Assembly: GCA_965227515.1 (NCBI GenBank)
Contig: CBDDFZ010000001.1
Coordinates: 1,920,001-1,984,000 of the forward strand
Length of the DNA stretch: 64,000 nucleotides
Direction of reading: 5' to 3'
Source: Alphaproteobacteria bacterium
GTDB lineage: Bacteria; Pseudomonadota; Alphaproteobacteria; CALKHQ01
Below the pieces are notes generated by a model. The model worked only from the letters and a program-made list of their open reading frames with translations, had not been told where the DNA came from and did not search any database. The stretch's first letter is position 1, and each line of letters starts with the position of its first letter. The position numbers and the translations under genes were made by a program. Of this stretch, positions 31,737 to 59,359 are shown in pieces.

Positions 31737-32819
31737 ATGGACGAAGTCAGGGTCGGGTTTGTCGGCGCGGGCCGCATTTCCAGCCTGCACGCGGCGGAGT
31801 ATCTGGCCAATCCGCGCGGGCGCATCGTCGCCGTCTGCGACGCAAACCTTGAGATCGCGCGGCACCAGGCGGCGGCCTGGGGCGTGCCGGACAACCGCGT
31901 GTTCGACAACTGGGACGCGCTGCTGGCGGTCGACGAGGTCGACCTGGTCGAGGTGCTGCTGCCCCACCACCTGCACAAGCCGGCGACGCTGGCCGCCATT
32001 GCCGCCGGCAAGAACGTCTCGGTGCAAAAGCCGATGGCGCATTCGGTCGCCGATGCCGACGACATGTGCCGGGCGGCGGCGGATGCCGGCGTCGTGTTCA
32101 AGGTGTTCGAGAATTTCGTTTTCTACCCGCCGGTGATGAAGGCGAAGGCGCTGATCGACGATGGCGCCATCGGCAAGCCCCTGTCGATCCGCATCAAGTC
32201 CAACCCGGGCGTCAGCCGTGGCGCCTGGCCGATCCCGGCCTCCGCCGAGGCCTGGCGCTTCAATCCCGACACGTGCGGCGGCGGGCCGTTGGTGTTCGAC
32301 GACGGCCACCACAAGTTCGCGCTCGGCTGGCACTTCATGGGCCAGGCCGAGGAAGTGCACGCCTGGATCGGCGAGACCAAGGTGCCGGCGGGCGTGCTGG
32401 ACGCGCCGGCGATGATCTCGTGGCGGTTTTCGGAGGGGCGGTTCGGCAACATGGAGTGTGTCCACTCGCCCGGCCTGGAGGTCGACACTGCGACGTACCC
32501 GCAAGACGACAAGGTGGAGATTACCGGCGAGGAAGGTGTCATCTGGATCACCCGCGGCCACGGCAAGATCGGCGATCAGCCGCCGGTGATCCTCTACCGG
32601 AATGGCGAGACCACGGGCTTCTCCGACCTGGAGAGCCACTGGGAGTCGAGCTTCGTGCACTCCACCCGGCATTTCATCGACGTGCTGTGCGATGGCGGTG
32701 TGCCCTCGCTGACCGGCGTTGAGGGCCGCGAGGTGCTGCGCTTCGCGCTCGCCGCCCTGAAGTCCGCGGAGTTGGGGCGCGCGGTGACCTTGGACGAAAC
32801 CGCGCCTGCGCCGGGATAA
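31737..32819 (+). CDS. Gfo/Idh/MocA family oxidoreductase
   Basis: VGFVGAGRI, PHHLH, GKNVSVQKP, GGG...D.GHH. Confidence 0.9.
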   Translation: MDEVRVGFVGAGRISSLHAAEYLANPRGRIVAVCDANLEIARHQAAAWGVPDNRVFDNWDALLAVDEVDLVEVLLPHHLHKPATLAAIAAGKNVSVQKPMAHSVADADDMCRAAADAGVVFKVFENFVFYPPVMKAKALIDDGAIGKPLSIRIKSNPGVSRGAWPIPASAEAWRFNPDTCGGGPLVFDDGHHKFALGWHFMGQAEEVHAWIGETKVPAGVLDAPAMISWRFSEGRFGNMECVHSPGLEVDTATYPQDDKVEITGEEGVIWITRGHGKIGDQPPVILYRNGETTGFSDLESHWESSFVHSTRHFIDVLCDGGVPSLTGVEGREVLRFALAALKSAELGRAVTLDETAPAPG

Positions 32820-32825
32820 GCACCG

Positions 32826-32916
32826 ATGCCCGTAGCCTGGGTGGAGCGCAGCGGAACCCGGGTTCGTCGCCACCTGCATTGTCAGTCCCCGGGTTTCACT
32901 TCGTTTCACCCGGGCT
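32826..32916. repeat. GTAG-type REP doublet (family D) interrupted by the IS110 element
   Basis: Left arm ATGCCCGTAGCCTGGGTGG; right arm CACCCGGG-CT is completed by ACGGGCAT at 34337-34344; intact relative at 59276-59359. Confidence 0.88.
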
Positions 32917-32949
32917 TCTGTAACGGGCCATTGTTGGTCAATCCCTTTT

Positions 32950-33115
32950 TCGTCGTCCCGGCGCCTGGGTCATGCTTCTGTACGGGGTCGGCGCAGGGCC
33001 GCCGCCAAGATGGATATGCGAGGATCGGTCGGTCCAATCTACGGAAGCGTGCTCTCATGCGAGGCGACATCCCGGATGGCGGCCTGACCTGATCCATCGT
33101 CCCGGCGCGGGACGG
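32950..33115 (-). ncRNA. predicted bridge/seekRNA of the IS110 element
   Basis: Two internal loops with segments matching target (33069-33075, 33039-33044) and donor junction (33007-33013, 32975-32982); ends approximate. Confidence 0.78.
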
Positions 33116-33180
33116 CGCTCGACGGGCCGGTGTCGGTGCCCGTCGAAGCTCGTGTGTCGGTTCTCCTTATGCCGCGGCCA

Positions 33181-34224
33181 TCATGCTGTCGCCATCGCCG
33201 GGCGCACCGGTCCGGCATGGTTGAACGGTGTGCCGTCAACCCACATCCGGTGCATGATCACGGCGAGCCGGCGCGCCAGCGCGACCTTCGCCTTCCTCAT
33301 GCCCGCACGCCTGGCCAGCTTCATCGCCCAGCTCTTCAGCCAGCCGCCCTCGATCGGCCGGGTCAGAACCACGTGTGCCGCCTCATAGAGGGCCGAGCGC
33401 ACATCGGCGTCCCCTACCTTCGATATCCGCCCCATCACCTCGCTCTCGCCCGACTGGCGCTTGGTCGGCGTCAGGCCGAAGTGCGCACCCACCAGGCGCG
33501 ACGAGGCAAACCGCCCGGGGTCGTCCACTCCCGACAAGTAGGTCAGTCCGACAATGCTCCCCACGCCCGGCACCGTCATCAGCAGGCGAGCGCGATCGTC
33601 GGCCTGCGCCGCCGCCCGGACCTGCCGGTCCAGCGCCGTGAACGATAGCAACAGGCCATCGCGTGCCGACAGCAGCGCCCCCGCCACCGCCTCCAGTACC
33701 GGATGCCCCGCCACAAGCTCCGAAATACGTGTCGAAAAGCTGCGCCTGGTGGTGTGCCCTACCTTCAGCCCGAAGTTCCGCAGCTGACCACGAAGGTGCA
33801 TCTCAAGATCGTGCAGCTTCGCGCGGAGCTGGTCGCGACCCTTCAAAAGGGCCCGCATCTCCTGGGCCGCCAAAGACTTGCAGTGAACCGGACGAAACCA
33901 GCCCACACGCATCAGCTGAGCAATCCCGCGTGCGTCCGAGCGGTCCGACTTCACCGGCATCGTCGAAAGCGCTCGCGCAACATGACGCGTCTCCAGCAAC
34001 TCAACCGAAAGACCGCCCTCGCTACATCCCCGCACAAGCCATTGCGACAACGGCCCCGCCTCAAGACCAATCCGCTCAACCGAAATCCCCAAAGACCCAA
34101 ACCACAACAACAAACCCGCCGGCGTGCTCGCAATACGAGCCTCGCAGACAATCCCGCCCGCGCCGTCAACAACGCACACCGATGACCATTCCAAAGAAAC
34201 GTCAATCCCGGCATAGTAGTTCAT
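33181..34224 (-). CDS. IS110 family recombinase/transposase
   Basis: DEDD RuvC-like residues (GIDVS, LEAG, KSDRSDA), TVPGVG, GLTP...QSG catalytic Ser, GRISK.GD, VALARRLA; GAGGAG RBS. Confidence 0.96.
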   Translation of the reverse strand: MNYYAGIDVSLEWSSVCVVDGAGGIVCEARIASTPAGLLLWFGSLGISVERIGLEAGPLSQWLVRGCSEGGLSVELLETRHVARALSTMPVKSDRSDARGIAQLMRVGWFRPVHCKSLAAQEMRALLKGRDQLRAKLHDLEMHLRGQLRNFGLKVGHTTRRSFSTRISELVAGHPVLEAVAGALLSARDGLLLSFTALDRQVRAAAQADDRARLLMTVPGVGSIVGLTYLSGVDDPGRFASSRLVGAHFGLTPTKRQSGESEVMGRISKVGDADVRSALYEAAHVVLTRPIEGGWLKSWAMKLARRAGMRKAKVALARRLAVIMHRMWVDGTPFNHAGPVRPAMATA

Positions 34225-34858
34225 GGTCGTCTCTCCTCGATGTCTTGGAGCGGCAAACCCGACTCCGTGTATGACACCGACATCTTGAGGGACGACCACT
34301 CATGCACGCCACCAAACAAGGGCCGTTAGCCCATCTACGGGCATGAAGGTCCGCCATCTCGGCCAACTTGGCGACAGTGTTGAGGTTGCGGCCGGTGCCC
34401 GTGGCGGCGGCGGGAATGACGAGTTTCGATGGGCCCTGGCCGTCCGGGTAATGGACGTAGATTTCGCGTTCCCCAAGCGCGATCTCCTCGTTCTTGAAGC
34501 CCCTGGCGGTTTCCGCGGCGTCGTCGGGCGGCGGTTGGTCAAGAAACAGCACGATGACCCGGTTCGGCGCGGCGTCCCGGAACGGGTTGCCGGCGAGCAC
34601 CCGCGCCATTTCGGCGGACGTGCGCAGCACCACGCCCACCGGCTTGCCTGTGTGGGCTTCCAGCCGCGATTCCAGCGCTACTTTCACTTGGGCACGCGAC
34701 ACGTCGGCCGTGAACACGACGTTGCCGATGGCGATGTAGGTGCGGGCGCCGGTGAAGCCCGCATCCGCGCATATCTGGCGCAGGTCGACCATCGCGAGCT
34801 TGCCGGTGCCGCCGACGTTCACCGCGCGGAGGAGGGCGATGTAGGTTTGGGCGGTCAT
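34202..34858 (-). CDS. DUF1697 domain protein with IS-derived C-terminal extension
   Basis: YIALLRAVNVGG, TYIA.GNVVF, GT.RN.NT..KL; codons after 174 lie inside the IS. Confidence 0.85.
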   Translation of the reverse strand: MTAQTYIALLRAVNVGGTGKLAMVDLRQICADAGFTGARTYIAIGNVVFTADVSRAQVKVALESRLEAHTGKPVGVVLRTSAEMARVLAGNPFRDAAPNRVIVLFLDQPPPDDAAETARGFKNEEIALGEREIYVHYPDGQGPSKLVIPAAATGTGRNLNTVAKLAEMADLHARRWANGPCLVACMSGRPSRCRCHTRSRVCRSKTSRRDDHELLCRD

Positions 34859-59275: not shown

Positions 59276-59359
59276 GTAGCCCGGGTGGAGCGCAGCGAAA
59301 CCCGGGAAAATCGGCGCGTCTTGTAGTCCCTGGGTTGCGCTTCGCTTCACCCAGGCTAC
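59276..59359. repeat. intact GTAG-type REP doublet (family D)
   Basis: GTAGCCCGGGTGGAGCGCAGCGAAACCCGGG...CACCCAGGCTAC. Confidence 0.88.

Follow-up and report, generated by a model that had tools for sequence, protein, structure and literature searches.

Repetitive extragenic palindromes (REPs) have been known as targets of insertion sequences (ISs) of the IS110/IS1111 family since 2006 (Tobes & Pareja), and the guidance of such elements by RNA has been known since 2024 (PMC11187229, PMC11208160). Here we describe an IS at positions 32917-34336 of a 64,000-nt stretch of DNA from an Alphaproteobacteria bacterium (CALKHQ01), which we call the window (GCA_965227515.1, contig CBDDFZ010000001.1, positions 1,920,001-1,984,000 of the forward strand) and within which all positions lie unless they carry the label C1 or C2, for the two contigs (4.07 and 1.45 Mb, 66.6% G+C) of the host genome. 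Among described systems, ISPa11, an IS1111 element of Pseudomonas aeruginosa, occupies a fixed position in REPs (PMC11187229; Tobes & Pareja), and its seekRNA is reported to be encoded by non-coding DNA that follows tnp, the complement of the top strand lying 5′ of that of the bottom strand (PMC11187229). IS621, an IS110-group element of E. coli, likewise targets REPs and is described as having a DEDD recombinase, a bispecific RNA encoded in its left end with the bottom-strand guide first, four guides that overlap a 2-nt core, and a core that flanks the element after insertion (PMC11208160). ISPpu10 and ISPpu9 of Pseudomonas putida are reported in multiple copies in REPs, often in convergent pairs, with CT duplicated at the junctions (preprint 10.64898/2026.03.19.712850; PMC12288879); for ISPpu10 the preprint names a stem-loop on the left-target side as a second determinant.

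Judged from its sequence, the window element would work like ISPa11: it carries the IS1111 features that we tested, and would be a clear, if unexceptional, instance of a known mechanism. It differs from ISPa11 in host class, REP family and target sequence, in a comparison that sets a published description against a predicted RNA. In contrast to IS621, the predicted RNA lies in the right end with the guide order reversed, a single closing helix encloses both RNA parts, and the protein matches IS621 in the C-terminal domain only (E 7e-11). Unlike in ISPpu10, the REP hairpin lies on the right-target side, where a guide pairs with its 5′ arm; and, unlike for ISPpu9 and ISPpu10, BLAST, the one method used for orphan RNA copies, revealed no solitary RNA module of the ssr9 kind in the host genome, where the whole element matched 21 places only. 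We conclude that 32917-34336 is very probably one of 21 copies of an IS1111-type element, integrated by RNA-guided, site-specific recombination into the GTAG tail of a REP.

Insertion point, copies and vacant REP sites

The IS and the REPs to which it relates are placed as follows.

32917-34336 (or 32915-34334, given the shared CT), minus strand: insertion sequence, 1420 bp, same ends in 20 full copies and 1 deleted copy
32915-32916, no strand: core dinucleotide CT (AG in IS orientation), target-side copy, in 21/21 copies
34335-34336, no strand: second copy of the core dinucleotide CT, at the other junction, from the junction sequence and the genome copies
32886-32916, minus strand: interrupted REP body (AG plus the hairpin CCCGGGT...ACCCGGG), with the 31-nt architecture of 111 intact REPs
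34337-34338, minus strand: GT tail of the interrupted REP (AC on the plus strand), AC following the element in 21/21 copies
32832-32862, plus strand: intact partner REP of the interrupted doublet, by sequence comparison
59276-59359, no strand: intact REP doublet for comparison, two inverted REPs, aligned over the full length

At the left junction CACCCGGGCT ends at 32916 and is followed by TCTGTAACGG; at the right junction GCCCATCT ends at 34336 and is followed by ACGGGCAT at 34337-34344. Removal of 32917-34336 joins CACCCGGGCT to ACGGGCAT, and the reverse complement of the rejoined 18-mer equals 32826-32843 at 17/18 positions, the two forming the outer arms of an inverted REP doublet, whereas an inverted partner at ≥17/18 within 120 nt was found for just 4 of 9115 18-mers sampled from the window. 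The rebuilt 99-nt site aligns along its full length with the doublet at 59276-59359, itself two complete inverted REPs (59276-59306, plus strand; 59329-59359, minus strand). Both the near-perfect inverted partner and the resemblance to this intact doublet had been proposed in an earlier note on the same DNA and are borne out here, as is its statement that CT alone is common to the two junctions. Because no other bases are shared, the boundaries of the IS are fixed to the base, as that note had claimed, save for a 2-nt ambiguity. The CT at both junctions is a shared core, formally equal to a 2-bp duplication. In the direction of the transposase gene the core reads AG; that of IS621 reads CT in gene direction.

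BLAST of the whole element against the genome recovered 20 full copies (89-100% identity) and one with an internal deletion. All 21 share the same ends, TCTGTAACGG... to ...GCCCATCT, with one or two base differences near the left end of the deleted and the 89% copies, and all share the same flanks, CAYCCRGGCT before the IS and AC after it, so that the check the earlier note had suggested, of flanks at other copies, returned identical ends and REP flanks throughout. In transposase-gene orientation the target reads (c)GT^AG-CCYGGRTGGAGCG, with the consensus GT^AG-CCYGGRTG in 21/21 copies; it consists of the GTAG tail and the 5′ stem arm of a 31-nt REP hairpin, and the IS enters between GT and AG, 2 nt outside the stem of the single hairpin. 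The earlier note had the element inserted in a REP arm: the REP stands, but the 'arm' is the outer arm of a doublet of two inverted REPs, and the site is in the GTAG tail. Insertion was site-specific at this one target motif in all 21 copies, with nothing duplicated beyond the 2-nt core, in line with the expectation of a short core and no classical duplication. All outer flanks differ, and the copies are therefore separate insertions. The open reading frame (ORF) of 345-347 aa is intact in 20/20 full copies, and the window copy is 100% identical to two others and 99.9% to three more, which on sequence grounds suggests recent activity. The deleted copy (C1:998355-999179) has lost element positions 121-701, and with them its target guides and the transposase gene's 3′ portion, and sits at the canonical REP position all the same.

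The uninterrupted motif GTAGCCYGGRTG was found at 114 IS-free sites, compared with ~5.8 expected from base composition, and 111 of them lie within a full REP hairpin of 31-32 nt with a GTAG tail; occupancy is ~16% of sites (21/135). Each of the 114 vacant sites, where CT stands once, can be taken as a paralogous empty site. REP bodies sought by regular expression numbered 151 in the genome. The family is a short imperfect palindrome present in many copies, with inverted doublets at 32832-32916 and 59276-59359 and an intergenic location that was checked for the window copies. Two inverted REPs of the same family (C1:1603786-1604429) also flank a Y1-transposase ORF (C1:1603908-1604246; PF01797, a weak match of 23.9 bits, just above cut-off), the arrangement expected of a REP-associated tyrosine transposase (RAYT); no REP stands closer than 900 nt to a second Y1_Tnp match, at C1:2017088.

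Contigs from 4 sequencing runs (X2, X6, X8, X9) among 24 listed were compared with the window. Those of X2, X8 and X9, labelled as other organisms and an algae metagenome, hold a near-identical IS (99-100% identity; 0-1 differences over 660-1000 nt) without the window's flanking genes, and the element therefore occurs in other genomic contexts. They stop at 34339, 3 nt beyond the IS end and covering the conserved ACG, and start at 32885-32910, inside the REP, of which they include 7-32 nt. These limits agree with the IS boundaries; no empty site is shown by them.

Transposase family and predicted guide RNA

33181-34224, minus strand: transposase/recombinase gene, 347 aa, DEDD type; PF01548, PF02371, NF033542; ORF intact in 20/20 full copies
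32921-32929, no strand: subterminal inverted repeat at the IS right end, TAACGGGCC on the plus strand, from sequence
34320-34328, no strand: subterminal inverted repeat at the IS left end, GGGCCGTTA on the plus strand, 8/9 with its partner

The transposase, read on the minus strand from 34224 to 33181, matches PF01548 (N-terminal, DEDD/RuvC-like; E 9.5e-13) and PF02371 (C-terminal; E 2.3e-20), both above gathering scores, and the NCBIfam equivalog NF033542, 'IS110 family RNA-guided transposase', at 237.4 bits (cut-off 140), which upholds the family named in the earlier note. Non-coding DNA extends 264 nt downstream of the gene and 112 nt upstream; subterminal inverted repeats TAACGG(G/C)CC (TAACGGGCC and TAACGGCCC, 9 bases, 8/9 matching) are set 4 nt and 8 nt from the IS ends; and the translation, read by eye, contains GLTPTKRQSG, an instance of the GL-P----S(T)G motif. 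Siddiquee et al. (PMC11187229) recognise IS1111 elements by non-coding DNA downstream of the gene, by subterminal repeats, by this same motif and by a transposase length of 330-350 aa. We class the element by these sequence features as IS110 family, IS1111 type, because of its long 3′ non-coding end, its subterminal repeats, its GL-P----SG motif and a guide order with the top-strand complement first. IS621, which the earlier note had given as an example, thus remains apt as a REP-targeting member of the IS110 family, but not for the type, which is IS1111 and not IS621/IS110. The best database protein outside the host genome is 72% identical to the transposase, and with no more than this identity the element would by usual naming practice be a new IS; the best match in a plasmid search, 68% identical, is annotated 'IS110 family transposase', and that search gave no named close relative. 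Of solved structures, ISCro4 (E 1e-11) and IS621 match the C-terminal domain only.

The 3′ non-coding end holds the following predicted RNA features.

32955-33113, minus strand: predicted bridge/seek RNA core, closed by helix P1, from RNAalifold and covariation in 15 elements
32984-33005, minus strand: hairpin P3 between the two donor guides, 7 pairs, 4 of them changed on both sides
33071-33078, minus strand: right-target guide CAUCCGGG, complementary to the REP 5′ stem arm (top strand of CCCGGATG)
33039-33044, minus strand: left-target guide CCGUAG (left flank plus core), the next bases, AU, being the first two of the IS left end
33008-33014, minus strand: right-donor guide UCCAUCU, complementary to the IS left end AGATGG(G)
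32975-32982, minus strand: left-donor guide UACAGAAG (IS right end plus core), the next base, C, being the first target base

For the structure we aligned the 3′ ends of 15 elements, namely three variants from the host genome and 12 relatives (43-69% transposase identity) with a complete right end, from 29 relative loci returned; L028 and L037 (duplicates of L027 and L035), L023 (right end not found), L042-L044 (no anchor or end found) and partial loci were left out. RNAalifold gave three helices with 24 pairs, 14 of which show compensatory changes: P1, which closes the whole RNA (33101-33113 with 32955-32968), P2, the base of the target arm (33091-33095 with 33022-33026), and the hairpin P3. 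In the alignment 94.1% of cells are paired, against 39-48% when partners were slid by 1-3 columns, and 0/500 shuffles reached the observed covariation score, figures that somewhat favour a structure derived from the test alignment itself. The slid controls and the two-sided changes strongly support the helices, and the RNA is assigned to the transposase-gene strand because the G-U pairs of the helices would be A-C on the other. The segment ACCCAGGC (32960-32967), tried as a second target guide, was rejected, as the alignment shows it to be the 3′ strand of P1. The sequence GCGCCGGGACGA is directly repeated, with one copy at each end of the predicted RNA (33102-33113 and 32955-32966, minus strand), overlapping both P1 strands; its second copy is present in the window element only, and the relatives are without it.

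Four unpaired segments of this RNA match DNA, two of them target guides and two donor guides, a four-guide logic known from IS621 (PMC11208160). Of the target guides, CAUCCGGG (33078-33071) lies 5′ of CCGUAG (33044-33039), so that the top-strand complement comes first, the order described for IS1111-type seekRNAs (Siddiquee et al., PMC11187229). The right-target guide is identical in sequence to the 3′ stem arm of the REP. When its columns were compared with the targets of 11 non-redundant elements, the longest exact matches ran to a median of 9 nt in cognate pairs and 3 nt in non-cognate ones; exact cognate matches of ≥8 nt occur in 8/11 elements, the window copy having 8 nt with one wobble. 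Non-cognate matches of that length number four, all between L033, L034 and L035, whose target is the same. For the left-target guide the corresponding medians are 5 nt (cognate) and 2 nt (non-cognate), and a C at position -3 before GTAG is present at 81/114 free and 16/21 occupied sites, with no detectable selection added by the C of this guide. The donor guides change with the elements' own termini as well: the left-donor guides follow ends in ACAGAAG, AGAGAAG or AGCGAAG, and the right-donor guide covaries, with GGCAU in L045 versus CCCAU elsewhere. The alphaproteobacterial relatives (L023-L046; Methylocystis plasmid NZ_CP107559.1) resemble the window element in architecture, AG core, RNA helices, the invariant TTG of a -35-like box and similar ends (AGATGGGG...TTACAGA or TTAGAGA); they differ at 43-69% transposase identity and in having other targets (CGGACATG, AAGGTTTG, GGCGGATT) with matching guides.

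These matches are consistent with a mechanism in which the element would excise as a circle, with its right end (...TACAGA) joined to its left end (ATGGGC...) through a single AG core. An RNA of ~160 nt from the 3′ non-coding end, on the transposase strand, would fold into a closing helix and two arms, with UCCAUCU and UACAGAAG of its donor part pairing with the element's own ends, and the DEDD recombinase would exchange strands at the AG core, which would then flank the element on both sides. The production of the RNA, the formation of the circle and the chemistry of the reaction are what we infer here from the element's features.

Two guide alleles in one genome

The copies in this genome carry two alleles of the right-target guide that differ by a single base, and the deleted copy, whose guide is gone, was excluded from the counts. 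The G allele CAUCCGGG is present in 13 copies, 11 of them in CCCGG and two in CCTGG sites, and the A allele CAUCCAGG in seven, none in CCCGG and all seven in CCTGG sites (Fisher's exact p=0.00046). Copies with the G allele sit in CCCGGATG (nine, perfectly matched), CCCGGGTG (two, one U-G wobble) and CCTGGGTG (two, two wobbles), so that sites short of a perfect match need U-G or G-T wobbles only; those with the A allele sit in CCTGGGTG (six, one wobble) and CCTGGATG (one, perfect), and in a CCCGG site this allele would need an A-C mismatch. Set against availability, T stands at the discriminating position in 46/135 sites, where 7/7 A-allele copies are found (p=0.0005), and the perfectly matched CCCGGATG class makes up 27/135 sites (20%) yet holds 9/13 G-allele copies (binomial p=0.00017). 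The copy at C1:926328 combines an A-type 3′ end with a transposase close to those of G-allele copies and sits in a CCTGG site; the site therefore follows the RNA end, not the protein.

The copies are mosaics, with the 3′ end of one subfamily joined to a transposase gene close to the other (C1:926328-927756) and with blocks of shared variants around element positions 1104-1112, a pattern that suggests recombination or gene conversion between copies.

We tentatively propose, at a little short of an even chance, that the two guide alleles share out the genome's REPs, CAUCCGGG preferring a perfect match but using U-G/G-T wobble sites and CAUCCAGG being confined to CCTGG. This would be a natural, in-genome read-out of IS1111-type mismatch rules and of guide drift that tracks REP subfamilies, and the guide, being identical to the REP 3′ stem arm, may displace that arm in an extruded or breathing hairpin. 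With only two alleles and mosaic copies, history is not fully separable from pairing rules.

Alternative explanations and implications

Several observations weigh against RNA-guided integration of an IS1111-type element at this site. The empty allele of the window site was not found in 31 genomes, of which the nearest, from another genus of the same family, is non-syntenic there; in the nearest genomes only an oxidoreductase gene (83% identity) and cysN-like DNA matched, on separate contigs. Among the contigs of X2, X6, X8 and X9 none bridges the window site and none contains the joint 32916>34337 or a circle joint; in X6 the window flanks are ~90-93% alike, with no join across the site. When both strands of 32500-34700 were compared with Rfam, allowing E values up to 1, no bridge-RNA family emerged, and the sole hit was a chance miRNA match (22 bits; gathering score 99). 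Folded as a single sequence, the 264-nt end is unremarkable (z -1.52) and its structure pairs the guides, for which reasons this fold was set aside; an inner hairpin of the target arm could not be made out in the window element. The window right-target guide is followed by AU and not CU, and so does not pair with the core G; L026 (4 nt) and L034 (6/8) match their own flanks poorly and may be old or off-target insertions. The subterminal repeat, at 9 bp with one mismatch, is shorter than the 11-13 bp usual according to PMC11187229, and the terminal extensions are 8/4 nt (one core included) in place of the 7 and 3 nt given there. Finally, same-allele copies share ancestry, gene conversion is evident, and the allele test counts insertion events although the alleles are not independent.

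Alternative explanations were weighed as well. An IS110/IS621-type element with its bridge RNA in the 5′ (left) end would share the Pfam and NCBIfam families, the REP target and the CT/AG core seen here, but we consider it very improbable: the 5′ end is just 112 nt and folded into a hairpin over the ribosome-binding site, all four guide matches and the three covarying helices are in the 3′ end, subterminal repeats are present, and ISCro4 and IS621, the only solved relatives, match the C-terminal domain alone (E 1e-11 and 7e-11). Slightly less remote, and still highly unlikely, is an ordinary cut-and-paste IS whose transposase protein reads the REP hairpin and leaves a 2-bp CT duplication, with the matches in the 3′ end incidental. 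The CT on both sides is formally such a duplication, REP hairpins are structured targets that proteins could read, and a target stem-loop is reported to contribute for ISPpu10 (preprint 10.64898/2026.03.19.712850). A protein reader does not explain why the guide columns change with the target across relatives with at least seven different targets, why a single G/A difference in the guide tracks the C/T state of the target within one genome, or why a mosaic copy follows its RNA allele and not its protein; the protein family is, moreover, annotated as RNA-guided (NF033542). Least credible of all is that the REP belongs to the mobile unit, so that the IS carries and spreads REPs and the 'target' is an element end. 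REP sequence does adjoin every copy, and the contigs of other runs include 7-32 nt of it at that end, but 114 uninterrupted GTAGCCYGGRTG sites stand without an IS, the adjoining REP varies (four classes) while the IS ends do not, and the GT tail lies on the opposite side of the element; the Y1-transposase ORF between inverted REPs is also a more usual candidate for spreading REPs.

A further alternative accepts RNA guidance and attributes the association of alleles with sites to history, through regional spread or gene conversion, rather than to wobble-tolerant pairing rules. We regard this as unlikely, though a good deal less so than the others: copies are mosaics, two guide alleles amount effectively to one evolutionary change, and 33 CCTGGGTG and 60 CCCGGGTG sites are still free. 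Weighing the other way, outer flanks differ for every insertion, which makes each a separate event; the bias runs in the direction that pairing predicts, since a G in the guide can pair with either C or T, but an A not with C; and perfectly matched sites are over-used (9/13 versus 20% availability). RNA-guided integration of an IS1111-type element remains the reading that we favour.

Outside the guides, two further features of the IS ends were noted.

34223-34299, minus strand: 5′ untranslated region (UTR) hairpin pairing the GAGGAG ribosome-binding site, fold -49.1 kcal/mol, z -2.83
32936-32941, minus strand: outward-facing TTGACC, -35-like, with TTG invariant and the next A and C nearly so in 15 relatives

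The upstream sequences of relatives show the same arrangement of 5′-UTR hairpin and ribosome-binding site. The TTGACC box near the IS right end would be spaced 17 nt from GAAGAT in a circle junction, is spaced 17 nt from GAAGCC when the element is integrated, and would by analogy fit the junction promoters reported for the IS110/IS1111 family (PMC12288879; PMC11187229 on ISEc11). Next to the IS lies a DUF1697 gene (PF08002, E 2.4e-36; 34202-34858, minus strand), 174 native codons of which end exactly at the IS boundary (34337), with the frame continuing through 44 IS codons; without the insert it would meet a stop 6 codons into the REP, and comparison of the two indicates that the insertion swapped the last 6 residues for a 44-residue, IS-encoded tail. 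Elsewhere the genome carries four copies of another IS110-family element, ~1.2 kb long (C1:85250-86155, C1:2520711-2521616, C1:3321434-3322339 and C2:1183213-1184118), with non-REP flanks that look like a different conserved target; further IS110-family ORFs stand singly at C1:1350459 and at C1:1792779.

Knowledge of the mechanism is unchanged by this element, and natural reprogramming of seekRNAs is already mentioned in PMC11187229; what goes beyond routine annotation is the guide polymorphism and its wobble-compatible spread over targets only. For the host, boundaries, target and a predicted guide RNA are now fixed for an IS abundant in its genome (21 copies), whose insertion explains assembly breaks of related strains at these places. 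For the bridge-recombinase field, the locus adds a well-resolved, predicted IS1111-type RNA architecture from the Alphaproteobacteria, in a clade that spans at least seven natural target specificities and includes a guide polymorphism within one genome, which could guide experiments on mismatch tolerance.

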